Assembly (NCBI GenBank): GCA_028688415.1
Contig: JAQTYF010000001.1
Coordinates: 80,627-144,626 of the forward strand
Direction: 5' to 3'
Origin: Candidatus Moraniibacteriota bacterium
GTDB taxonomy: Bacteria > Patescibacteriota > Minisyncoccia > Moranbacterales > UBA1568
DNA length: 64,000 nucleotides
Each line of letters begins with the position of its first letter. The stretch's first letter is position 1. Positions 27,381 to 64,000 of the stretch are shown piece after piece. A program made the position numbers and the translations under genes. The notes below the pieces were generated by a model. The model was given only the letters and a program-made list of their open reading frames with translations. It did no database searches and was not told the origin of the DNA.

Positions 27381-27512
27381 TCGCAAGAATCTTTCTGGGA
27401 AGCCTGAAGTTTTTTTGAGCATGGTTCCGACGTTTCGTCGGATCAAAAAAAGTTCACGCAAAGAGTTTTTCCGCTGGGAAAAATAAATGGTTCCAAAGAA
27501 AGGTTGCTTGCG
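27381..27512 (+). repeat. Intergenic structured repeat element, copy B
   Basis: Alignable to copy A over its whole length. Internal hairpin here is 'ccgacgtttcgtcgg' versus 'ccgtcgtcttcgacgg' in copy A, which is a compensatory change preserving pairing. Confidence 0.5.
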
Positions 27513-50030: not shown

Positions 50031-50099
50031 AGTATCTTTTGTAGAAACAAAGAGAGCATGCGCCTTGCTTTTAGGGCGTTTTTGCTTTATTCTGAGGAA

Positions 50100-51917
50100 A
50101 TGAATGAAATTACCCCACAAAAAAATATTCGAAACTTTTGCATTATTGCTCATATTGACCATGGAAAATCTACTCTAGCTGACCGTTTGATCGATCTGAC
50201 ACATACGGTGGAAAAACGGAAAATGAAAGAACAATTGCTCGATCAGATGGATCTCGAACGAGAACGTGGCATCACTATCAAGCTTCAGCCAGTCCAGATG
50301 CACTATATCTATGAGGGAGTGGAGTATATGTTGAATCTGATCGACACACCAGGACACGTAGACTTTCATTACGAAGTATCGCGCTCGCTTGCTGCAGTCG
50401 AGGGCGCTATCCTTCTCGTGGATGCTACCAAAGGAGTGCAGGCTCAGACACTTGCCAATCTCTATCTCGCTATTGAACAGGGTCTTGAAATCGTTCCTGT
50501 GATCAATAAAATTGATTTGCCGAATGCACAGGTAGAAAAAACCAAAAAAGAAATTGTTCATATTCTCGGATGCAAAGAAGAAGACATTCTCCTCGCTTCT
50601 GGGAAGACAGGGATGGGTGTACAAGCAGTACTCGAGCGAGTTATTACTCTTGTCCCTCCACCAAATGGAGATGCGGAAAAACCTCTTCGGGCACTTATTT
50701 TTGATTCTGTTTACAACACGTACAAAGGAGTCGTCGCGTATGTGAAAGTTGTTGATGGAAGTGTGAAGCGTGATGATATGCTCCATATGCTCGGAACAGA
50801 GAAAGAAGGAGTAACTGTTGAAGTAGGACTTTTTCATCCAAACCTCGTACCAACTGATATTCTTCGTGCTGGAGAGATCGGTTATATCGCTACAGGACTC
50901 AAAGAAGTGGGACACTGTCGCGTCGGAGATACAGTGACGTGGCGACTCAGAGACCGAGAAAAAGTGTTCGTGGAACGTCTCCCAGGGTACAAAGAAATCA
51001 AACCAGCCGTGTATGCGAGTTTCTATCCGCTTGATGGTGATGATTATACATTGATGCGTGACGCCTTGGATAAACTCAAGCTCAATGATGCTGCGTTCAC
51101 TTTCGAACCAGAAAGCAATCAGGCTCTCGGAAGAGGGTTTCGTTGTGGATTTCTCGGACTGCTCCATCTCGAAATTATTCAGGCCAGACTTGAGAGAGAA
51201 TTCGATCTCAGCCCGACGATTACAACACCGTCAGTTGTCTATGAAATTGCTTTGCATGGTGAGGAGAAACGCATTCCGTTGTATTCACCGACAAATCTTC
51301 CTGATCCATCAAGTATCGAGAAAATTTACGAACCATATGTCGCTCTTTCTATCGTGACGCCGAGTGAATATTTGGGAAATGTGATTACACTGACTTCGTC
51401 TATTCGTGCGGAATACAAAAATACAGAATACATCGATGAGGAACGGGTGCTCCTCTCTTTTGAAGCACCCCTGATGGATGTTATTGTCAACTTTCATGAT
51501 GATCTGAAAAGCGCTTCCTCGGGATATGCTTCGATGAATTATGAACCAATAGAATATCGAGCAAGCGACGTTGTCAAGCTTGAGATTCTCGTTGCGAATG
51601 AACACGTGGACGCTTTTGCTCGTATGATCCCTCGTCGGGATGCATACGGAGAAGGAAAACGTGTGGTAGAGAAATTGAAAGAAGTAATTCCGAAACAGAA
51701 TTTTGCTGTGGCTATCCAGGCTGCTATCGGAGGAAAAGTCATCGCTCGTGAGACGATCGCTGCGTTCCGTAAGGATGTGACAGGTGGTCTCTATGGGGGA
51801 GATTTTTCACGGAAGAAAAAGCTCCTTGAGAAGCAGAAAAAAGGGAAGAAGAAGATGCGTGATATCGGGAAAGTTTCTATTCCAGGAAGTGCTTTTCTCG
51901 CTGTGCTGAAGAAATAA
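50100..51917 (+). CDS. lepA: Elongation factor 4 (LepA)
   Basis: 'IRNFCIIAHIDHGKSTLADRL', 'DTPGHVDF', 'NKIDL', and the LepA C-terminal domain. Start moved to the Met at 50100. Confidence 0.95.
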   Translation: MNEITPQKNIRNFCIIAHIDHGKSTLADRLIDLTHTVEKRKMKEQLLDQMDLERERGITIKLQPVQMHYIYEGVEYMLNLIDTPGHVDFHYEVSRSLAAVEGAILLVDATKGVQAQTLANLYLAIEQGLEIVPVINKIDLPNAQVEKTKKEIVHILGCKEEDILLASGKTGMGVQAVLERVITLVPPPNGDAEKPLRALIFDSVYNTYKGVVAYVKVVDGSVKRDDMLHMLGTEKEGVTVEVGLFHPNLVPTDILRAGEIGYIATGLKEVGHCRVGDTVTWRLRDREKVFVERLPGYKEIKPAVYASFYPLDGDDYTLMRDALDKLKLNDAAFTFEPESNQALGRGFRCGFLGLLHLEIIQARLEREFDLSPTITTPSVVYEIALHGEEKRIPLYSPTNLPDPSSIEKIYEPYVALSIVTPSEYLGNVITLTSSIRAEYKNTEYIDEERVLLSFEAPLMDVIVNFHDDLKSASSGYASMNYEPIEYRASDVVKLEILVANEHVDAFARMIPRRDAYGEGKRVVEKLKEVIPKQNFAVAIQAAIGGKVIARETIAAFRKDVTGGLYGGDFSRKKKLLEKQKKGKKKMRDIGKVSIPGSAFLAVLKK

Positions 51918-51988
51918 TAAAAAAGTTCACGCAAAGAGTTTGCCCGCTGGGGCAAATGAATGGCTACCCAGAGAGATTGCTTGTGATA
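51918..51988 (+). repeat. Intergenic structured repeat element, copy C (3' half only)
   Basis: 'aaaaaagttcacgcaaagagttt.cccgctgggg.aaatgaatggct.cccaga.ag.ttgcttg' matches the 3' halves of copies A and B. Begins immediately after the lepA stop. Confidence 0.4.
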
Positions 51989-55739: not shown

Positions 55740-56899
55740 TGCGGATAGGAATCGATATACGGTGTCTGGCAGAAGGAAAACGTACGGGAGTGGAAGAATA
55801 TACTATTGCTCTTCTTTCTGGACTTTTCGAACAATTTCCAGAGAATGACTACATTCTTTTTTTCAATGCATGGAAGAAGCAACTTCCTGATTTCTCGTGG
55901 GCGACTCGGTATCCCAATGTGACACTGCGAGTGTTCCATTTTCCAAATAAATTGCTCAATTTCTCACTCTGGTACTTCCGTTTTCCGAAACTCGATACAC
56001 TTATTGGCGGTACGGATGTATTTTTTCTTCCGAATTTGAACTTCTCCGCTGTTTCTCGTAAGACGAAACTGGTGGTGACAGCACACGACCTGTCATTCGA
56101 ACTCTTCCCAGACACTTTCTCTCTGAAACGTCGTATCTGGCATTTTTTCATCAATTTCAGAAGTCTAGTTCGGAACGCTGACGCTGTGATTGCCGTATCA
56201 GAATCGACCAAGAATGACCTCATAGATTACTACGGTGTTTCAGAAAAGAAAATAACCGTGATCCACAGTGGCATAGGAGAACAATTCTCCGTGATGAGTC
56301 GTAATGATACGAACCTTGTTCGAGTACAGGAGAAATATCATCTGCCATACAAATTCATCCTTTCTCTTTCGACATTCGAACCACGCAAGAACCTACTTGC
56401 TCTCATATCAGCCTTTGATGCATTGATGGCACTCGACCATCCTGTACTCAAGAAATATATGCTCGTGATTGCTGGTACACGTGGGTGGAAATATCGAGAG
56501 ACGTTTCAAGCGATCAAAAACTCTCCATACAGAAAAAACATTCTCCTGACGGGATTTATCGCCGATGAGGACAAATCCGCGCTTTATAATCTTTCGAGTC
56601 TTTTTGTTTACCCATCATTTTATGAAGGATTCGGATTTCCACCTCTCGAAGCGATGGCGTGCGGTGTGTCTGTCATCGCTTCCCATTCGTCTTCTCTCCC
56701 AGAAATAGTCGGTTCGGCAGGGATACTCGTCGATCCGTATCGACCAGACGAGCTCTTCCAGGCGATGAAACAGGTCTTGCTCGATCCAGAACTCCTAGAC
56801 ACACTCCGTAAACAAAGCGAACTGCGAGCACGTGATTTCCAGTGGAGCACTTCCATCGCATCGACGGCTCATATCTTCTCTTCGATTGTTGAAAACTGA
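55739..56899 (+). CDS. Family 4 glycosyltransferase
   Basis: 'YEGFGFPPLEAMACGVSVIAS'. Start at the Met at 55739 (MRIGIDIR) overlaps the previous stop by 1 nt. Confidence 0.8.
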   Translation: MRIGIDIRCLAEGKRTGVEEYTIALLSGLFEQFPENDYILFFNAWKKQLPDFSWATRYPNVTLRVFHFPNKLLNFSLWYFRFPKLDTLIGGTDVFFLPNLNFSAVSRKTKLVVTAHDLSFELFPDTFSLKRRIWHFFINFRSLVRNADAVIAVSESTKNDLIDYYGVSEKKITVIHSGIGEQFSVMSRNDTNLVRVQEKYHLPYKFILSLSTFEPRKNLLALISAFDALMALDHPVLKKYMLVIAGTRGWKYRETFQAIKNSPYRKNILLTGFIADEDKSALYNLSSLFVYPSFYEGFGFPPLEAMACGVSVIASHSSSLPEIVGSAGILVDPYRPDELFQAMKQVLLDPELLDTLRKQSELRARDFQWSTSIASTAHIFSSIVEN

Positions 56900-56927
56900 G
56901 CATTGTTTCGAAAAATGATGTTTTTTC

Positions 56928-56956
56928 GAGCTTCCTTGACAGCTCGTTTTTTTTTG
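56928..56956 (+). terminator. Rho-independent terminator after glycosyltransferase
   Basis: 'cgagct-tccttgac-agctcg' followed by T9. Confidence 0.55.
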
Positions 56957-57102
56957 CAAAAAATATGATACAATTACCACAGAGAGATGTCGATATCTCT
57001 TCTCGTTAGACTCTCTGACGAAAATGTAAGAAAACAAACAGTTGTGCGTCATAAGAAACAGAGAGGAATATAATCCTCATAGTAAATAATAATAAAAAGT
57101 GT

Positions 57103-58506
57103 ATGAAGGAGAAAAACACAAAGAAGATAGGCACAGGAGCAGCATTACTCATAGCAGTAATGTCTTTTAGTTCGTTTTTTGCCGTGGCATCGTTGGTAGG
57201 GAAGAACCAATCTCCTCTGACTCCAGTCAGTCTTGCGAGTGATAATGAGGGGGAAGATGGTAATGATTCAGATGAGAACAAAGACGAGGAAGATGATGAC
57301 AAGGATGAGGTGAAGTCTGCTTCTGAAAAAGCTAAGAAAGAGAAAGAAAAATCTCGAGAAGATTTGAAGAAGCGTTCTGAACGTGCAAAAGAGTCCAATA
57401 AGCAAACCACAGAACAAGATTCTGATGATGAAGAAGATAATAATGATGAAAACGAAGGAGATGAAAACGACGAGAACGACGACAATGATGGAGATGTAGA
57501 TGACGATATGGATGAAGAAGATGATGATTCTTATGGTCAGGCACGAGGAGGGGATTTCGAGGGCATGTACAAAGACAGCGCGAAAACCCTTTCAAAATTG
57601 CAGGAAAATATAGCAGAAGCTGAGAAACATATTCTCGAAAAACAAGCAGAAGGAGTCGATGTGACTACTGCTCTTGCTGAGCTGAGTCTTGCCAAGGCCA
57701 AATTGGCTGGAGTAAGTACAGCATTTACTGCAAGCAATTTCGAGATGGCCAAGAAATTGTCCAAAGAAATCAAAAAAGAATCACTTTTCAGCGAGAAAGA
57801 TCTCGAGTTCAAGAAAGATATGACTGAGTCGATAGCAGAAGTGATGAAGAAATTTACGAAAGTAGAGAAGAAAATTGCCTCGCTCGTCGCTCTTGGTGGC
57901 GATTCGACGACGTTCAACACACAATTGGCGTCACTCCGAGCTGATTTTGATGTCTTACAAACTTCATCACTCGTGACACGAACTGATGCGAGAGCTTTCG
58001 AGAAAAAAGCTGAACGATTGAAGAATCTCGTCGAGCAATCAATTTTTGCTCTCGGTGGCACAGAAGAAGATGATGATCTCTATGCCGATCATGAAGAAGA
58101 TGCGGATGATCTCGATGAAGATTTGAATGATGTGGCTGAGATCGAAGACGGTGATGACAATGGTGTTGCGAAGAAGGTTCGTGCTATTGCAGCAGAACAC
58201 CGCTCATCAGTAGCTGATATCGCCAAAAGTTTGAGTGATATTCAGAATCAGAGCGGATTTACAAAAACAGTTTTTGGTCCTGATGCTACCGCCTTGAATG
58301 GTCTCACAGCACAGACGACTGCTATGACGGCTCGTGCTGATGCATTGACGACTGCCTCTACACAGGTGACCGATCCTGATGTGAAACAGATTCTCACAGA
58401 TCGTGCATCAGCACTGCGTAGTGAGGCTTCCAAGCTTCAGGCGTATCTCACTGCTACGACAAACCAGTTCAGTATCTTCGGAAAATTCCTCTCTCTCTTT
58501 CGCTAG
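57103..58506 (+). CDS. Membrane-anchored, highly acidic (D/E-rich) coiled-coil protein
   Basis: N-terminal TM (AALLIAVMSFSSFFAVASLV). About 100-aa Asp/Glu/Asn low-complexity region, then long helical heptad-like segments and a second acidic block (EEDDDLYADHEEDADDLDEDLND). Confidence 0.5.
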   Translation: MKEKNTKKIGTGAALLIAVMSFSSFFAVASLVGKNQSPLTPVSLASDNEGEDGNDSDENKDEEDDDKDEVKSASEKAKKEKEKSREDLKKRSERAKESNKQTTEQDSDDEEDNNDENEGDENDENDDNDGDVDDDMDEEDDDSYGQARGGDFEGMYKDSAKTLSKLQENIAEAEKHILEKQAEGVDVTTALAELSLAKAKLAGVSTAFTASNFEMAKKLSKEIKKESLFSEKDLEFKKDMTESIAEVMKKFTKVEKKIASLVALGGDSTTFNTQLASLRADFDVLQTSSLVTRTDARAFEKKAERLKNLVEQSIFALGGTEEDDDLYADHEEDADDLDEDLNDVAEIEDGDDNGVAKKVRAIAAEHRSSVADIAKSLSDIQNQSGFTKTVFGPDATALNGLTAQTTAMTARADALTTASTQVTDPDVKQILTDRASALRSEASKLQAYLTATTNQFSIFGKFLSLFR

Positions 58507-58526
58507 CGAAGAGAAGGAAAGAAAAC

Positions 58527-58557
58527 AATCCCTTATCCTTGATGAGGGATTTTTTCT
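58527..58557 (+). terminator. Rho-independent terminator
   Basis: 'aatccct-tatccttgatg-agggatt' followed by 'tttttc'. Confidence 0.55.
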
Positions 58558-58622
58558 TTTGTGATTTCTGTGATATTCTAATGGTGTAGCAAATTTTGTA
58601 AAATAAATCGACACGTATCACT

Positions 58623-59234
58623 ATGGATAAGAAATCAAAAATATTTTTTGCCGTATTTTTTCTACTCATTGTTCTCTCTGTTGGAGCGACCTACTATCGG
58701 TATGTCGTGGCGCATGACTATATGATTCAGGCAGAGTTAGACTGTGATCCCTATACTGAATCTTGTTTCGTCTATGTTTGTGATCCGGAAGCTGATGAAG
58801 AATGTACCGGAGATCCGATAGAAGATACTTCGTATTACAAACTTATCGATCGCAATGCCAAGAATATTCCTCTTTGTGATCCTGCCGATGAAAATTGTAC
58901 TGCTCTCGTGTGTGAAGAAGGGGAGGTAGACTGCTCATACACACTCTGTGATCCAGAGACAGCCGAAGAGGGTGAAGTGTGTAATGATCCAGTTGTGTAT
59001 ACAGCCGAGAATCCGATAGAAGAAGAAACAGATGAAGCAGTGGATGAAGAAGGAGCTACTACTCTGACTGAGGACGAAGAAAGTATCCCTGCTACCGAAG
59101 GCGAAGAAACAGCAAATGAAACAGTCGAAGGAGAAGAAACAACAGAAACTCCTGCAAATGCTAATGAAACAGAACCTGTATCTACCGAAGCATCCATCAC
59201 TCCTGCAGTTTCTGGGACGGTTATCGTGCCCTAG
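58623..59234 (+). CDS. Membrane-anchored Cys-rich protein with four C-D-P-x(n)-C repeats and acidic Glu/Thr-rich tail
   Basis: N-terminal TM (IFFAVFFLLIVLSVGATYY). 'CDPYTESC', 'CDPEADEEC', 'CDPADENC', 'CDPETAEEGEVC' repeats (12 Cys). C-terminal E/T-rich low complexity. Confidence 0.5.
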   Translation: MDKKSKIFFAVFFLLIVLSVGATYYRYVVAHDYMIQAELDCDPYTESCFVYVCDPEADEECTGDPIEDTSYYKLIDRNAKNIPLCDPADENCTALVCEEGEVDCSYTLCDPETAEEGEVCNDPVVYTAENPIEEETDEAVDEEGATTLTEDEESIPATEGEETANETVEGEETTETPANANETEPVSTEASITPAVSGTVIVP

Positions 59235-59365
59235 TATATTTGATTCATATCGCTATCGGTATTTAGCTATGACATAGCAGAAGAGGGTTTTTTCGGACAC
59301 GTTTCGAAGTCTTTTTTTATTTTGCAGATCTTACAAATATAGTAGCCAAGAAGCTCACACAATCT

Positions 59366-59394
59366 TTGAAAGTACAGGTGAAAACCGGTATAAT
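59366..59394 (+). promoter_or_regulatory. Near-consensus sigma70-type promoter (TTGAAA-17-TATAAT) about 100 nt upstream of the fusion gene
   Basis: 'ttgaaa' 59366-59371, a 17-nt spacer, and 'tataat' 59389-59394. Confidence 0.45.
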
Positions 59395-59494
59395 GGACGG
59401 GTATATCACCGATGCGCATGTGTACAAAAACACCTATGACGATGCATTCGATATCCTGAGTACGTATCTTAATCAAACAGCTACAGCTTAATAT

Positions 59495-61213
59495 ATGAAG
59501 CTTTATTGTATTTCAGGGAATAAAAAGAAACTTGATCATTATCAAGAATTGCAAAAGATATTTTCTTCACGTCTTTTTGACATTGTTCCCAAAGAGATAA
59601 CTACTTCCGAAATACAGTCAGTAAAAGGAGAAGAGGTTGTCCGGGAGAAAATGAATCAAATACGTAAACAAACATCGATGCCTTTTATTGTTGATGATGT
59701 TTCTTTGCTTGTTGGATCGAATGCTTACCCAGGAGCACTAATAAAGCATCTACTAGAAAATAATAATACCGAAACGATACCACAATTCTTGCCAGACAAA
59801 ACACCTGTTGTAGTGGTTTGTTATCTCGGATATTTTGATGGTTTTGACTCTTTCATATTTAAGGGTGAGTTACGAGGAGAAACTCACTTTGATTCTTTGG
59901 ATGTCCGTGCCCCGATTCAGTTGGATACTCTCATCTTTGCTCATGGTGTCCCTCTTGGTGTTGTTGATTCTACCGAAAATCATCGAGGGAAAGCCTTTCA
60001 GGAATTAGTGAAACACATTGAATCAGTCAGAGAAGAGCGTGAACGACATAATGTACAGGTAGCTGAACGTTGGAGCAAACGAGCAAACGAGTGGCAATCA
60101 GTACGTGAGGATGTTGCGTCCTATGTGAATCATGAGAATGGCTATGATCGTTTCGATACTGAAGTAAACCGTATTTTGCCTTTTATATTTGGTACGGCTA
60201 TTGATGTTGGTTGCGGTGATGGAGCTGTCACGAGGCTTATTTCCTCGAATGCGAACATAAAGAACATCATTGGAATGGACATCAGTTCAGAAATGATCCA
60301 AACAGCTACAAAGAACACAACAGACAGTCGAATTCGGTATGAAGTTAGTTCATTTTTGAATACTAATAAAAGAAAGTATCATCTTATCACCTCGAGAGGT
60401 GTCGTGTTGTCGCATATGCATAAGACAGATGTTCTTCCGACGCTTATAGCGTTTGCAGAGTCTCTTGAGACAGATGGTTTCCTCGTCTTTGATTATATTA
60501 GTAATATAGATAACAATGATGATGCAGGGAGAATGCAGAAAAATCAGTTGAGTAAAGAGTGGATCCTTGCCGTTTTGACAGAGCTTGGGCTCGTAAATAT
60601 TTCGTATAACGGATCCGAGACTCATAGAGTGAGTATACTCGTATTTCATAAACCAATTCCACAATCAGTATATTTTGCCACTGGCAATGCTACCAAGGTT
60701 CTCGAACTGAAAAATAAATGTAAGAATCATATCATTCATTTGGCAAATGTTGATGTTACAGAAATCAAGAGTGATGACATTGTGGAGATTGCAAAAGATA
60801 AGGCAATGAAGAGTTACACTGTATTACATCACCCTGTCATTGTGACCGATGGAGGTATATTTATTCATGCGTTGAATGAATTCCCTGGTCCAAATTCTAA
60901 ACAGGCAGCGATGCTTCTCGGGCCAAAAAAGATACTCGCCTTGATGGAGAATGAAATTGATAGAACTGCTATCAGGCGAAATTGTATGGTTTTTTTTGAC
61001 GGACATAACTATAAAATTTGTATTGCAGAAGTACCTCTTCTTATAAGTCATGATATTACGACGAGTAAATATGATGCCTATCCATTGGATTCTATACTGA
61101 TACCAATACATACTGACAATCTTAAAAAACAAACCTATAAGCAAATGACTGTTACGGAACGCTTGATGTTTACCGAATTACCATTTTTTGAAGAATTCCT
61201 TGCTACACTTTGA
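59495..61213 (+). CDS. Tri-domain fusion: HAM1/ITPase-like NTP pyrophosphatase + class I SAM-dependent methyltransferase + second HAM1/ITPase-like domain
   Basis: N-terminus: 'YCISGNKKKL...E', 'VDDVSLLVGSNAYPGALIKH', 'NHRGKAF' match the Ham1/RdgB motifs (ATGNxGKxxE; DDSGLxVxALxGxPGxYS; SHRGxA). Middle: 'AIDVGCGDGAVTRL...IIGMDIS' is MTase motif I/II. C-terminus: 'YFATGNATKVLE', 'VTDGGIFIHALNEFPGPNSKQAA' are a second Ham1-like set. Confidence 0.6.
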   Translation: MKLYCISGNKKKLDHYQELQKIFSSRLFDIVPKEITTSEIQSVKGEEVVREKMNQIRKQTSMPFIVDDVSLLVGSNAYPGALIKHLLENNNTETIPQFLPDKTPVVVVCYLGYFDGFDSFIFKGELRGETHFDSLDVRAPIQLDTLIFAHGVPLGVVDSTENHRGKAFQELVKHIESVREERERHNVQVAERWSKRANEWQSVREDVASYVNHENGYDRFDTEVNRILPFIFGTAIDVGCGDGAVTRLISSNANIKNIIGMDISSEMIQTATKNTTDSRIRYEVSSFLNTNKRKYHLITSRGVVLSHMHKTDVLPTLIAFAESLETDGFLVFDYISNIDNNDDAGRMQKNQLSKEWILAVLTELGLVNISYNGSETHRVSILVFHKPIPQSVYFATGNATKVLELKNKCKNHIIHLANVDVTEIKSDDIVEIAKDKAMKSYTVLHHPVIVTDGGIFIHALNEFPGPNSKQAAMLLGPKKILALMENEIDRTAIRRNCMVFFDGHNYKICIAEVPLLISHDITTSKYDAYPLDSILIPIHTDNLKKQTYKQMTVTERLMFTELPFFEEFLATL

Positions 61214-61288
61214 CAATTGACTCTTTTGAGAATAGTAAATGGTGGTGCAATAATGCAACATCATGCCTATTCTGAAAAGGAGAGAGCG

Positions 61289-61867
61289 ATGAAAAAGATA
61301 ACTATCTGTGTTTTTGGTGTCAATGGTGTTGGCAAGTCAGTTCTTTTGGAAGCTGTGCAGGATATACATCCTGATGCTATTGTTGTGCGTGGAAGTACTC
61401 TCCTCAAAGAGGCTTTGAGCGTAGCTTCTTATGAAGCTCTGGAATCGATGTCTTCATGCGTGAAGAAGAAGGCAATAATCGATAGTATCATAGCGCTGAC
61501 TGAGGATACGAAAAGTCCTATCACAATAGTGGACACACATTTGGTTGTGCCTATCCGTAAATCTCATGAATTGACTGTCGAAGATATGTGGGATGATGGA
61601 TTGCTTGGATGCTTTCAAGGCTTCATTTACATTCAGGCACATCCATCGATGGTTTCTGAACGACGTCAGATCAACGGAGATCGCGTATTACGTGCTCTCA
61701 ATTCCAGTTCAGAGGTCTGCTCTGAGGATCTTCGGTTGAATGCTTGTCGTTGGGATGAGATTTGCCCGAAGATGCAGAACAAGAAAGTGATAGTGAATGA
61801 CCAGTCAGTGTTTATTGGAGCGATGAAGATATCTCACTTCATCAGAGAATTGCAGGTATCTTTTTGA
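61289..61867 (+). CDS. P-loop NTPase, small kinase-like protein (putative nucleoside/nucleotide kinase)
   Basis: Walker A 'ICVFGVNGVGKS', Walker-B-like 'ITIVDTHLVV', Arg-rich lid-like 'RRQINGDRVLRAL'. About 190 aa. Start moved to the Met at 61289. Confidence 0.5.
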   Translation: MKKITICVFGVNGVGKSVLLEAVQDIHPDAIVVRGSTLLKEALSVASYEALESMSSCVKKKAIIDSIIALTEDTKSPITIVDTHLVVPIRKSHELTVEDMWDDGLLGCFQGFIYIQAHPSMVSERRQINGDRVLRALNSSSEVCSEDLRLNACRWDEICPKMQNKKVIVNDQSVFIGAMKISHFIRELQVSF

Positions 61868-61975
61868 CTTCACGAGATGTTGTGCGAGAGATGGGCGTTC
61901 CGAATAATATTTGGAGCCCCATTTTTTTATGTAAAGCTATTTTTTATGATAAAATAGGGTATAATCAAATAAAAT

Positions 61976-62761
61976 ATGTTAAATCTTTTGAAAAAAATAC
62001 TCATTGTAGGAAGTACTCACGGTCACGAAAGGATCGGTTTAAAGGTGATCGATGAATTGAAAAAACTGAATGTAGGGAGCGATGTGCTTCAGTTTGAAGT
62101 TGGCAATCCAAGGGCTTCAGAAAAAAACATTCCTTTTACTGAGAATGATTTGAATCGTGTTTTTCCAGGGAAAGAACATGGTACCTATGAAGAAATGCGA
62201 GCGTATGAATTGTCTCCGAAAATCAAAGAATCGGACTTGGTGATAGATATCCATTCGACAAATACTACAGATCTGAGTGATAGATCCGTGCTTATAGTGA
62301 CTAGCTATAACCAGGCGACGAAAGATATTATAGACGTAATCAAGCCACCCAAGGTTCTCTATATGAAGTATAAAGGAGACAACGCATTAATCTCTCAAGC
62401 AAAAGTTGGTATAGCTTTCGAATATGGTAAAGATTCGAGTACTGAAGTACTCAATGCTATTTTGTATGATATCGCAGAAGTATTGATGTATTACGGTCTT
62501 GTGGAAAAAAATCCCTATAAAACGATCAAACCTATAACTGAAACTGAAATATTTGAAGTGTATGATGTATTCAAGAAAGATTTCGTCGGTCCTCACAAAT
62601 TTTATCCAAATATAAAAAATTTCGTAAATGTAGCGAAAGGTGAGACAATCTGTAGTACAGAGAGTGATGAGCAGATACTCGCAGAAGAAGATTTTATACC
62701 AATATTATTTGGCGAGAACAGATATACGGATATACTCGGGTTCAAGGCGAAGAAGATTTAA
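61976..62761 (+). CDS. AstE/AspA-family (succinylglutamate desuccinylase/aspartoacylase-like) zinc hydrolase
   Basis: 'ILIVGSTHGHERIG' (HxxE zinc motif) and 'NRVFPG' are hallmarks of the AstE_AspA / M14-like family. TATAAT at 61956-61961 upstream. Confidence 0.65.
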   Translation: MLNLLKKILIVGSTHGHERIGLKVIDELKKLNVGSDVLQFEVGNPRASEKNIPFTENDLNRVFPGKEHGTYEEMRAYELSPKIKESDLVIDIHSTNTTDLSDRSVLIVTSYNQATKDIIDVIKPPKVLYMKYKGDNALISQAKVGIAFEYGKDSSTEVLNAILYDIAEVLMYYGLVEKNPYKTIKPITETEIFEVYDVFKKDFVGPHKFYPNIKNFVNVAKGETICSTESDEQILAEEDFIPILFGENRYTDILGFKAKKI

Positions 62762-62942
62762 TAATACACACTATTTTTTGCAAAAAATGGGGATTTGGGG
62801 TAGAACATGAGTGCAAGAAGTGCCTTTTTTTTGAAGAAGAGAGTTTTTAGATTTTTGACAGTTTTATACTTCTGATGTATTGTTTTATTTTAGTCGAATG
62901 AATCAATAATTCATTTTTTAAACTTTATTTTTTAAAAAATAC

Positions 62943-64000
62943 ATGAACACAATAGATACATCTGATAATATTAAGGGAAACAGTGAAGTTAATGTGAGTA
63001 AATTTGGAGTAGCTCCACAATTGGATGGTTACTATTTTTCACCAGAAAGAGCAAGAGAAGCGAGAGATCAGGGGCGACTATTGTCTATAAGGATTGAGCC
63101 AAGTTTTCGGTGTAATTTACGTTGTGAGTATTGTTATAATAAAAATTATCAATCTTTACCTGATGAAATTAGTTATTCTGAATTGGAAGACATTATTTAT
63201 CAAGCAAAAGAACTCGGCGCTGAATCTATTGTGAATATCGGAGGAGGGGAACCGACCATTTACCCTCGATTTAAGGATTTGACGATATTTATTAATTCGC
63301 TAGGTATGGTCCCTGTTATTTTCACGAACGCTCAAACAATGACAAAGGATCTCGCAAAGTTTTTATTTGATAATAACGTTTCGGTAATTATTAAATTTGA
63401 TTCATTAACGGAAAGTATACAAGATTCTTTATCAGGAGTGAAGGGTGCTCACAGAAATATTATGCAAGGGCTGGATAATTTATTGAAGGCCGGTTATGCT
63501 CACACAAAAAGTGACCAAAAGCTTAAATTAGGAGCCTCGTTCGTTATAAGCAAGAAGAATGCACATGAAGTTGTTGGCTTGTGGAAATTTTGTAGAGAGC
63601 GGAAAATATTTCCAAACTTGGAGATGATGACTCCTAATGAAACAGGAACGAATGCTGAGAAAAATCTTTTAAGCAGACAAGAATGGAAAGAAATTAAAAT
63701 GCAACTTCTGGAAATTGACCGGAACGACTACGGTTTTGATTGGTTACCATTTACTCCCTTAGTTGGAAGTGGTTGTTTCCAGTTAATGTATAGTTTTTAT
63801 ATTACTGCAAGAGGATTTGTTCGCCCATGCGCTGCGATTGAAGTAGAATACGCAAATATAAAAGATTATTCTTTAAAAAATATAATGAAACTTCCTTTTT
63901 ATCAGATGGCAAGAAATATTGACAAACATTTACAGGGGAAGTGTGGTGGATGTAAACATATATTAAATTGTCTGGGGTGTAGAGGAATGGCGTTCTCAAT
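62943..64000 (+). CDS. Radical SAM enzyme with C-terminal SPASM/twitch-like Cys-rich domain (partial; runs off window end)
   Basis: My own translation from ATG 62943 has no stop to position 64000. 'PSFRCNLRCEYCYN' (CxxxCxxC), 'NIGGGEPT'. C-terminal cysteines in 'GSGCF', 'RPCAA', 'GKCGGCKHILNCLGCRG'. Confidence 0.7.
   Translation, partial: MNTIDTSDNIKGNSEVNVSKFGVAPQLDGYYFSPERAREARDQGRLLSIRIEPSFRCNLRCEYCYNKNYQSLPDEISYSELEDIIYQAKELGAESIVNIGGGEPTIYPRFKDLTIFINSLGMVPVIFTNAQTMTKDLAKFLFDNNVSVIIKFDSLTESIQDSLSGVKGAHRNIMQGLDNLLKAGYAHTKSDQKLKLGASFVISKKNAHEVVGLWKFCRERKIFPNLEMMTPNETGTNAEKNLLSRQEWKEIKMQLLEIDRNDYGFDWLPFTPLVGSGCFQLMYSFYITARGFVRPCAAIEVEYANIKDYSLKNIMKLPFYQMARNIDKHLQGKCGGCKHILNCLGCRGMAFS

Follow-up and report, generated by a model that had tools for sequence, protein, structure and literature searches.

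Do the four consecutive genes at the right-hand end of a 64,000-nucleotide stretch of Candidatus Moraniibacteriota DNA (GenBank assembly GCA_028688415.1, contig JAQTYF010000001.1; the whole stretch is referred to below as the window) belong to a single pathway? The genes, all on the + strand, encode a fusion protein with a class I S-adenosylmethionine (SAM) methyltransferase between two HAM1 domains (g1), a P-loop nucleoside monophosphate (NMP) kinase (g2), a zinc deacylase of the AstE/AspA family (g3) and a radical SAM/SPASM enzyme (g4), and an earlier note made from the sequence had taken them for one cassette for nucleotide or small-molecule modification. Gene order in related genomes gives a different answer. 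The region is best read as three unrelated things side by side, namely g1 and g2 with the relic of a further gene, g3, and g4; and g1 and g2 are probably what remains of an operon that, by analogy with phage T4, would take a cytidine nucleotide from the nucleoside triphosphate (NTP) to the NMP, modify its base and re-phosphorylate it.

Two of the four genes form a conserved unit

Open reading frame (ORF) listing and translation reproduced the four consecutive + strand genes that the earlier note had described, with gaps of 75 (g1-g2), 108 (g2-g3) and 181 (g3-g4) nucleotides. The fusion gene g1 occupies positions 59495-61213 (572 amino acids), with its N-terminal HAM1 domain (N-HAM1) encoded by 59495-60040, the methyltransferase by 60041-60658 and the C-terminal HAM1 domain (C-HAM1) by 60659-61210. 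The kinase gene g2 (61289-61867, 192 amino acids), whose product resembles archaeal adenylate kinase, is listed as an ORF from a TTG at 61217; its true start is the ATG at 61289, because an AAGGAG site precedes that codon and it aligns to Met1 of all homologues. The deacylase gene g3 lies at 61976-62761 (261 amino acids), and g4 runs from an ATG at 62943 to the end of the window at 64000, so that 352 of its 374 codons are included. The note had recognized the radical SAM gene as incomplete at that point; contig JAQVTP010000002.1 (GCA_028699965.1), whose 12,025 overlapping bases are identical to the window, completes it, with an end at window-equivalent position 64067 and a full length of 374 amino acids. 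The motifs GVNGVGKS, HGHERIG and NRVFPG picked out in the note are present in the translations, as is CNLRCEYC, and the domains that the note assigned agree with Pfam and NCBIfam. Its view of a reduced, probably host-dependent genome agrees with the Candidatus Moranbacteria assignment, and its caution that co-orientation is weak evidence is well placed, almost the whole window being + strand.

Loci that carry the fusion gene were gathered by exact-protein look-ups, one scan of species-representative genomes and one metagenome scan, and were annotated with phmmer and tblastn. Together these loci represent about 15 distinct lineages, whose fusion identities lie between 34% and 66%; most of what the metagenome scan gave was generic methyltransferase noise, and its only true relatives are the loci we number L021-L023. 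The fusion family comprises 28 clusters in 5.8 billion sequences, all of them from Moranbacteria or Patescibacteria where the source is named, and an exhaustive phmmer search of 1.84 billion representatives for the g2 family gave 53 matches at E<=1e-3 and 15 at E<=1e-10. In every lineage examined a g2 homologue is the next gene downstream of the fusion on the same strand, at a spacing that ranges from a 4-nucleotide overlap to an 80-nucleotide gap. Because they are adjacent in every lineage and both families are rare, g1 and g2 are a genuine conserved unit.

The unit is part of a three-gene operon that has decayed in the window

A gene for a thymidylate synthase (TS)-like protein of 204-257 amino acids stands immediately before the fusion gene, or overlaps its start, in 12 of the 13 other lineages whose upstream side can be judged (L004/L011/L021, L007/L013, L012, L014, L015, L016, L019, L020, L022, L100, L101 and the P0009 contig, where its presence rests on listed gene calls only); among the 13 it is missing upstream of the fusion in L009/L018 alone. 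The three-gene operon of TS-like enzyme, fusion and kinase is confined, as far as seen, to genomes of the Patescibacteria, or Candidate Phyla Radiation (CPR).

The 260-nucleotide, apparently intergenic stretch upstream of g1 in the window is a relic of this gene. The relic (59321-59491, + strand) consists of the last 56 codons and the stop, in frame. With the TS-like proteins of L004 and L007 as queries, tblastn matches 59321-59476 in frame +2 at 63% identity (E=8e-19 and 2e-17), which covers residues 192-243 of 249, and the similarity continues to the stop at 59489-59491; this stop lies 3 nucleotides before the g1 start, the same spacing as in the intact relatives. By tblastn there is no trace of the first ~190 codons anywhere in the 64-kb window, and two independent Logan assemblies carry the same truncation. 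An intact TS-like gene together with the pyrophosphatase and kinase genes is present in the 12 related lineages, and codons 192-249 are all of it that the window retains. The TS-like step has apparently been deleted from this genome, and the three-gene operon has decayed here. The g1 and g2 genes of the window, on the other hand, retain every invariant residue of their families, so one of two things holds: the loss is recent, or the branch that is left still has a use, as in L009, where there is no TS-like gene.

The near-consensus promoter that the earlier note had placed ahead of the four genes, TTGAAA-17-TATAAT at 59366-59394 on the + strand (11 of 12 matches), is indeed present, and lies inside the relic of the truncated gene. 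Its hexamers are not conserved in the intact genes of the relatives (which have CTTGGG...TATCAT, CTTAGA...AATTAT and similar), and the 21 promoter-like sites found in 58500-64000 are no excess over the 18.6 +/- 4.5 of shuffled sequence. The site may be a secondary promoter for g1-g2, and the absence of its hexamers from the relatives is compatible with its having arisen after the deletion removed the operon's own promoter.

The TS-like enzyme of the relatives is predicted to act on a cytosine nucleotide

The TS-like enzyme scores above the Pfam TS cutoff, and its best NCBIfam match is the small methanogen-type TS TIGR03283, with 124.6 bits over the full length in one subfamily against a cutoff of 174.55. 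The closest solved relative is MilA (E=2e-10), with T4 deoxycytidine monophosphate (dCMP) hydroxymethylase following at E=6e-4. The catalytic Cys and the His/Tyr pair are present in the HMMER alignment. At the position of ThyA N177, which lies upstream of the part kept in the window and was read from the alignment of the relatives, there is a nearly invariant Asp that aligns with MilA D186. Asp at this position is common to cytosine-specific enzymes and Asn to uracil-specific ones (PMC5175136), and because of this rule the predicted substrate of the TS-like enzyme is a cytosine nucleotide.

The comparison with MilA and BcmA, the cytidine monophosphate (CMP) 5-hydroxymethylases of the mildiomycin and bacimethrin pathways, shows both likeness and difference. 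The Asp at the N177 position is shared with MilA, and a Lys at the Arg126' position with both. MilA Ala176 is replaced by Ser (the Ser167 position), as in deoxy-specific enzymes, and at the ThyA L143 position, which is Asp or Glu in hydroxymethylases (PMC13326640) and Asp in MilA, the TS-like enzymes have Tyr or His. At the pathway level, the MilB/BcmB N-glycosidase was not found in the CPR operon, which has instead an NMP-type kinase and HAM1 domains.

The fusion protein and the kinase

In the fusion protein the Pfam family Ham1p_like is matched with 103 bits (cutoff 22.5) in two stretches that flank the methyltransferase, and Methyltransf_25 with 45.1 bits (cutoff 27). AlphaFold2 gives a confident single-body model (predicted local distance difference test, pLDDT, 90; predicted TM-score, pTM, 0.86), and Foldseek and profile searches with the HAM1 parts find MJ0226, ITPA and KomB. 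The likeness to house-cleaning NTP pyrophosphatases of the RdgB/HAM1/ITPA type extends to fold and catalytic motifs: C-HAM1 is 30% identical to MJ0226 (PDB 1b78), with a target-normalised TM-score of 0.86 and a profile E of 1e-35, and the catalytic Lys, Glu and Asp are kept (K401, E404 and D452, invariant across the family). The fusion differs from those enzymes in having two HAM1 domains per chain with a methyltransferase between them; in scoring below the xanthosine/deoxyinosine triphosphate (XTP/dITP) diphosphatase equivalogs NF011396 and TIGR00042 (133.9 bits vs 203 and 93.8 vs 145); and in having an invariant TEL in C-HAM1 in place of the purine-reading SHR motif of the base pocket. This last replacement hints that C-HAM1 may act on a substrate other than inosine triphosphate (ITP) or XTP. 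In N-HAM1 the DDVS, PGA..K and NHRGKA motifs are kept in the long members of the family and are partly deleted in others.

The methyltransferase has an invariant G-C-G-x-G SAM motif I, and its nearest structures are small-molecule N- and O-methyltransferases (phosphoethanolamine methyltransferases, NodS, DhpI and TehB); alignment and structure comparison found no catalytic Cys of the C5-methyltransferase kind. It is not universal in the family, since in two lineages (L019 10004-10912 and L020 9650-10663) the middle gene encodes HAM1 only, with an N-terminal extension of 118-153 amino acids, and no methyltransferase domain; in both, this gene keeps its place between the TS-like gene and the kinase gene.

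The kinase g2 has only a weak Pfam match (AAA_17). The profile of its family aligns from end to end with archaeal adenylate kinases (1nks, E=1e-7), the P-loop and LID arginines are conserved, and the L009 homologue matches NCBIfam PRK04040 at E=1.7e-13. A fold-level likeness to archaeal adenylate kinase is thereby supported by the profiles; the PRK04040 equivalog itself (NF003122, cutoff 155) is not reached by g2 (20.5 bits) or by the L009 homologue (50.5 bits).

A T4-like precursor pathway as the probable function

A pyrophosphatase and an NMP kinase are always encoded together in these loci, and they would therefore run a futile cycle unless the NMP is altered in between. For such a change, after hydrolysis and before re-phosphorylation, the obvious candidates are the TS-like enzyme and the methyltransferase. 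Phage T4 makes its hydroxymethyl-dC precursor in just such a way, with gp56 (dCTPase/dUTPase), gp42 (dCMP hydroxymethylase, a TS homologue) and gp1 (dNMP kinase) (PMC13326640, PMC6400193). The relatives of the g1-g2 locus likewise encode an NTP pyrophosphatase, a TS-fold enzyme with the cytosine-marking Asp and an NMP kinase, and they encode the three steps as one tight operon. The resemblance is one of logic more than of parts: the operon is found in cellular CPR chromosomes and not in a virus, its pyrophosphatase has the HAM1 fold and not that of gp56, its kinase resembles archaeal adenylate kinase and not gp1, its TS-like enzyme is of the small methanogen/MilA-like type with only the distant match to the T4 hydroxymethylase given above, it has a SAM methyltransferase domain in addition, and in the window the TS-like gene is truncated.

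On this analogy we consider it probable that g1 and g2 are the remnant of such a cytidine-nucleotide operon and that g3 and g4 are unrelated neighbours. In the intact operon a HAM1 domain would hydrolyse a (deoxy)cytidine-type NTP to NMP and pyrophosphate, the TS-like enzyme would put a one-carbon unit on C5 of the cytosine nucleotide, the methyltransferase domain would methylate the base or the new substituent, and the adenylate-kinase-like enzyme would re-phosphorylate the modified NMP for return to the NTP pool. What we infer from the T4 comparison is the order of these reactions, that cytidine is the HAM1 substrate, which group accepts the methyl and where the product goes. In the window genome at most the pyrophosphatase, methylation and kinase branch would still run, perhaps from the promoter within the relic.

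A bolder extension, to which we give only a small chance of being right, is that the operon is a cellular counterpart of the pre-replicative base modification of phages: some CPR bacteria would make a 5-substituted, possibly methylated (d)CTP, either for incorporation into their own DNA or RNA or for export as an antimetabolite. In that case the window genome would amount to a knockout, made by nature, of the C5 step, and the longer operons described below would make a hypermodified base. Apart from this operon, such a logic is to our knowledge seen only in phages whose DNA has its cytosine replaced. A recent phage origin of the operon itself is not supported: scans of IMG/VR with the fusion and kinase alignments gave no relatives, none of 50,697 GenBank phages is matched by g1 in tblastn, and identity between the TS-like enzyme and phage TS is only ~26%. 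In PHROGs there is nothing for g2 or g3 and there are generic matches only for g1, g4 and the TS-like enzyme. No description of the operon or of the HAM1-methyltransferase fusion was found in the literature and databases searched; the known system nearest in logic to this uncharacterised operon is the T4 precursor pathway.

Genes that accompany the operon

Other recurrent neighbours of the operon belong to nucleotide-type enzyme families, namely a QueC-like ATPase, a HisC-like pyridoxal phosphate (PLP) enzyme and a TS-NUDIX fusion. In a longer subfamily (L012 41-1126, L014 3579-5448, L015 2954-3733 and L022 3628-4839) there are extra genes upstream of the TS-like gene, with a QueC-like PP-loop ATPase and/or a HisC/CobD-like PLP enzyme directly upstream of it on the same strand; to judge by these families, the longer operon hints at a more elaborate hypermodification of the base at the mononucleotide level. 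At L016 8282-9476 the TS-like gene is present as two ORFs, and its C-terminal half, which carries a fused NUDIX domain (PF00293, E=1.7e-9), immediately precedes the fusion gene. The L004 operon has two dCTP-deaminase-like genes in its vicinity, and a bAvd gene (a diversity-generating retroelement accessory gene) precedes the operon of L007. At L009/L010 5102-7607, in the lineage with no TS-like gene, the fusion-kinase pair stands ~2.4 kb from genes for a ThsB-type TIR protein, a reverse transcriptase and helix-turn-helix (HTH) proteins, a setting that looks like a defence island. A defence-system label was considered and dropped, as PADLOC gave only a generic mad2 methyltransferase match and sub-threshold prokaryotic viperin (pVip) matches. 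Identity with the Kongming system KomABC was likewise rejected: the likeness is to the fold of KomB only, there is no SIR2 or deaminase gene among the neighbours, and PADLOC gave no match.

The deacylase and radical SAM genes

The g3 product matches Pfam PF24827 (AstE_AspA_cat) with 50.7 bits against a cutoff of 25, and it shares the zinc site of aspartoacylase and succinylglutamate desuccinylase: in alignments with ASPA 2gu2 and Mlr6093 2qj8, the zinc ligands (His-Glu-His), the NRVF motif and the catalytic Glu all coincide. It differs from these enzymes in length (261 amino acids against ~310-350) and lies far below the Aspartoacylase, AstE and DoeB NCBIfam equivalog cutoffs (60.7 vs 180, 21.8 vs 305 and 19.7 vs 402), in a CPR-wide family of its own. 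This family, well conserved in Patescibacteria, numbers more than 282 clusters, many with identities of 60-70%. A 68% identical orthologue lies between a chorismate-mutase/GNAT gene and greA, beside the ATP-synthase operon and with TrpRS nearby, and a 59% identical one follows grpE-dnaK-dnaJ; near these two there is no fusion gene, g2-family kinase or g4-like radical SAM gene. Among the other fusion loci an AstE-like gene is found in the L004 lineage only, where the gene, a paralogue with 26% identity, lies on the other strand and beside a GCS2 gene. By its sequence and its settings g3 appears to be a stand-alone, widespread CPR zinc deacylase or carboxypeptidase-like enzyme of the AstE/AspA fold, and not a conserved partner of g1-g2.

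The g4 product has the full cysteine set of a radical SAM/SPASM enzyme (CX3CX2C in CNLRCEYC, C-X12-G-X4-C, CX2CX5CX2C and then more Cys), with Pfam scores of 66 bits vs 29.5 for Radical_SAM and 29 bits vs 21.5 for SPASM. Its best solved relatives are SkfB (1e-11), then 5v1q (CteB-like) and PqqE; the CX3CX2C and SPASM cysteines are common to these and to NirJ/AhbD, and g4 reaches no NCBIfam equivalog (best 81 bits vs a cutoff of 500). The neighbours of the family change, and no precursor peptide of the kind that goes with radical SAM/SPASM maturases of ribosomally synthesized and post-translationally modified peptides (RiPPs) is evident near g4: between 62640 and 64000 there is no ORF of >=50 amino acids except out-of-frame ones that overlap g3 or g4, and inspection by eye of the 181-nucleotide g3-g4 gap found no convincing precursor, although shorter peptides could be missed. 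A pVip assignment was rejected, for although PADLOC gave E=2e-18, the viperin_w_prok score was 56.8 against 180 and the SPASM part of g4 is not covered by the viperin model. The family has more than 153 clusters and is 45-50% identical across Planctomycetota, Actinomycetota, Dehalococcoidia, Gracilibacteria, Nanoarchaeota and Methanolobus, and there is no g4-like gene at any other fusion locus examined.

What g4 does belong to is seen in L103, a related 256-kb contig that carries the backbone of the window. Upstream, L103 has a GT4 glycosyltransferase (81% identical to that of the window genome), a 203-amino-acid protein (47%) and a second GT4 (62%); then, beyond a segment of different content, come the radical SAM gene (81%) and, downstream, a HisC-like PLP enzyme (53%), a 344-amino-acid protein (63%), an APH-type kinase (58%), an inorganic pyrophosphatase (90%), a class III aminotransferase (89%), a 441-amino-acid protein (67%) and a HAD-IB phosphatase (62%). 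That segment holds DsbA and PDDEXK genes in L103, and two acidic proteins, the TS relic, g1, g2 and g3 in the window. The interval 57103-62761 (~5.8 kb) is thus a variable segment not present in L103, and g4 is a widely conserved radical SAM/SPASM enzyme of the chromosome backbone to its right and not a partner of g1-g3.

The gaps on either side of g3 contain candidate signals on the + strand: a terminator-like hairpin followed by a T-run at 61897-61917, between g2 and g3, and a promoter-like site, TTGACA-17-TATTGT, at 62855-62883, between g3 and g4 and 60 nucleotides upstream of g4. These would fit separate expression of the genes.

Edges and surroundings of the variable segment

A 15-nucleotide palindrome, TTTTTTGCAAAAAAT, stands at both edges of the variable segment: the left copy, TTTTTTGCAAAAAAT(A), is at 56950-56965, 51 nucleotides beyond the second GT4 stop codon, and the right copy is at 62774-62788, 12 nucleotides after the g3 stop. 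The 14-mer TTTTTTGCAAAAAA occurs only at these two places in the 64-kb window (56950 and 62774), and the palindrome is absent from L103. The window holds ~20 exact repeat pairs of >=15 nucleotides and the placement was noticed after the fact, so the two copies are suggestive of a possible recombination or insertion boundary. Within the segment, 57103-58506 (467 amino acids) and 58623-59234 (203 amino acids, Cys-rich) encode very acidic low-complexity proteins, each with a hydrophobic N-terminus; neither has a Pfam match or is present in L103, and they resemble surface proteins that are common in CPR genomes.

Downstream of g4 (L001 12163-20531, equivalent to window positions 64138-72506) lie genes for a HisC/CobD-like PLP enzyme, the 344-amino-acid protein, the APH-type kinase, the inorganic pyrophosphatase, the class III aminotransferase, the 441-amino-acid protein, an MtnX-like HAD-IB phosphatase and a saccharopine-dehydrogenase-fold protein; the 344- and 441-amino-acid proteins have no family match, and a relationship of the former to the L004 GCS2 protein found no support in BLAST or phmmer. 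This block is conserved in L103 up to the HAD gene. Together with g4 it may be a small-molecule cluster or plain synteny, and we do not claim a cluster because L103 is a close relative and distant g4 homologues have other neighbours. One such homologue, 45% identical (L107 6164-10088; Methanolobus sp. ZRKC3, CP146982.1), has three tiny ORFs before it, of which one encodes a PEF-CTERM motif, and an EgtD-like Methyltransf_33 gene and then a DDAH/ADI-fold gene after it; another (L104) has an ornithine/arginine decarboxylase gene on one side and a PPDK-like gene on the other, and a second radical SAM/SPASM gene lies just upstream of the decarboxylase. Neighbours from arginine, ornithine and polyamine metabolism recur loosely around g4 homologues, and we draw no claim from them.

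An Rfam scan of 56800-64000 found no riboswitch or other RNA family, and there are no tRNAs in the 64-kb window. G+C content is 0.39 at 60-62 kb and 0.35 at 62-64 kb, against ~0.40-0.45 across most of the window, and GC skew reaches +0.22 within 60001-64000. Farther to the left an exact 23-nucleotide repeat, AAAAAAGTTCACGCAAAGAGTTT, occurs at 27446-27468 and 51919-51941; both copies look intergenic, and the second lies directly after the stop of the ORF at 50058-51917.

Weighing the alternatives

Several observations sit awkwardly with a T4-like cytidine-nucleotide operon. HAM1 enzymes are classically pyrophosphatases for purine nucleotides (ITP and XTP), and N-HAM1 retains the canonical NHRGKA motif. 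The TS-like enzyme gives mixed signs as to the sugar, the Lys being that of CMP enzymes and the Ser that of dCMP enzymes, and its Tyr or His at the L143 position fits neither known hydroxymethylases (Asp or Glu) nor methylases (Leu), so that the C5 chemistry is not fixed. Two lineages (L019 and L020) have no methyltransferase domain, and an intact TS-like gene is missing from one lineage (L009/L018) and from the window, which together leave no step universal beyond HAM1 and the kinase. In the window g1 and g2 are free of the signs of decay that a dead pathway would be expected to show. An AstE-like gene stands near the operon in two lineages (the window and L004), so a loose link to g3 is possible. 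Finally, the backbone shared with L103 possibly reflects common descent rather than function.

A rival reading makes g1 and g2 a sanitation and salvage pair for the nucleotide pool and not a modification pathway, with HAM1 clearing non-canonical NTPs, the kinase recycling NMPs scavenged from the host and the TS-like neighbour serving as the thymidylate synthase of the lineage. The canonical HAM1 fold and catalytic motifs, close to MJ0226, the NHRGKA of N-HAM1, the methanogen-type TIGR03283 match and the dCTP-deaminase-like genes near the L004 operon are what such a pair would lead one to expect, and CPR bacteria do rely on nucleotide salvage. We nonetheless regard it as unlikely: the Asp at the N177 position speaks against deoxyuridine monophosphate (dUMP) as substrate, the conserved methyltransferase between the HAM1 domains is left unexplained, both families are far too rare for housekeeping, pyrophosphatase and kinase would only undo each other's work, in a futile cycle, if both acted on one nucleotide, and the window genome dropped the TS-like gene but retained g1 and g2. 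The chance is slimmer still that the operon is an anti-phage or inter-microbial weapon, whether it makes a toxic or chain-terminating cytidine analogue, comparable to the products of viperin or to antimetabolites of the bacimethrin and mildiomycin type built on 5-hydroxymethylcytosine, or uses HAM1 as a nucleotide sensor as in Kongming. The context of the operon differs from lineage to lineage and includes the ThsB-TIR, reverse-transcriptase and HTH genes of L009 and the bAvd gene of L007; MilA comes from an antibiotic pathway; and the gene set for bacimethrin, reportedly described by Cooper et al. in 2014, is said to be a TS-like enzyme, a methyltransferase and a kinase, as here. Kongming KomB is a structural neighbour of C-HAM1 (PMC13454610). 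Against a weapon stand the lack of a system-level match in PADLOC, where only the generic methyltransferase match to mad2 was obtained, the lack beside the operon of a conserved effector (SIR2, TIR, nuclease or membrane protein) and of a MilB/BcmB-type N-glycosidase, a kinase of the NMP-kinase and not the ThiD type, and the restriction of defence-type neighbours to one or two lineages.

The cassette of the earlier note, in which all four genes would be transcribed from the 59366 promoter for the tailoring of a modified nucleoside, a peptidyl-nucleoside or a RiPP-like product, now seems very improbable and is largely refuted by the synteny test. The four genes do lie on one strand with short gaps, their enzyme classes are plausible for nucleoside tailoring, the L004 lineage also has its AstE-like gene near the operon, and g3 shares the repeat-bounded variable segment with g1-g2. 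The note had held that scattered homologues in related genomes would speak against it, and scattered is what those of g3 and g4 are: g3 orthologues occur in unrelated contexts, the g4 orthologue sits in the same backbone without g1-g3, no other fusion locus has a g4-like gene, and the families are of unequal size, with 28 clusters for g1 against >282 and >153 for g3 and g4. The members of the g1-g2 pair, always adjacent, are the part that is co-localised, and nucleotide modification survives as a proposal for this pair but not for g3 or g4. Internal promoters or terminators, which the note had also counted against a cassette, are present as candidates by sequence in the g2-g3 and g3-g4 gaps; the ranges scanned showed no precursor-peptide ORF or Rfam element, and shared orientation counts for little where almost the whole window is + strand.

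What the operon may mean for CPR biology

A four-gene cassette would have been a misleading annotation, as the real unit differs from it and has a part missing. That unit is a rare operon, so far seen only in CPR genomes, that unites an NTP pyrophosphatase, a TS-fold enzyme predicted to be cytosine-specific, a methyltransferase and an NMP kinase. Nature has supplied variants of it that can serve as controls: intact operons, one with no TS-like gene, two with no methyltransferase domain, and the window with its truncated TS-like gene. If the product is indeed a modified cytidine nucleotide, then bulk-modified DNA or RNA in uncultured CPR bacteria, and the production of nucleotide antimetabolites by them, would become testable questions.

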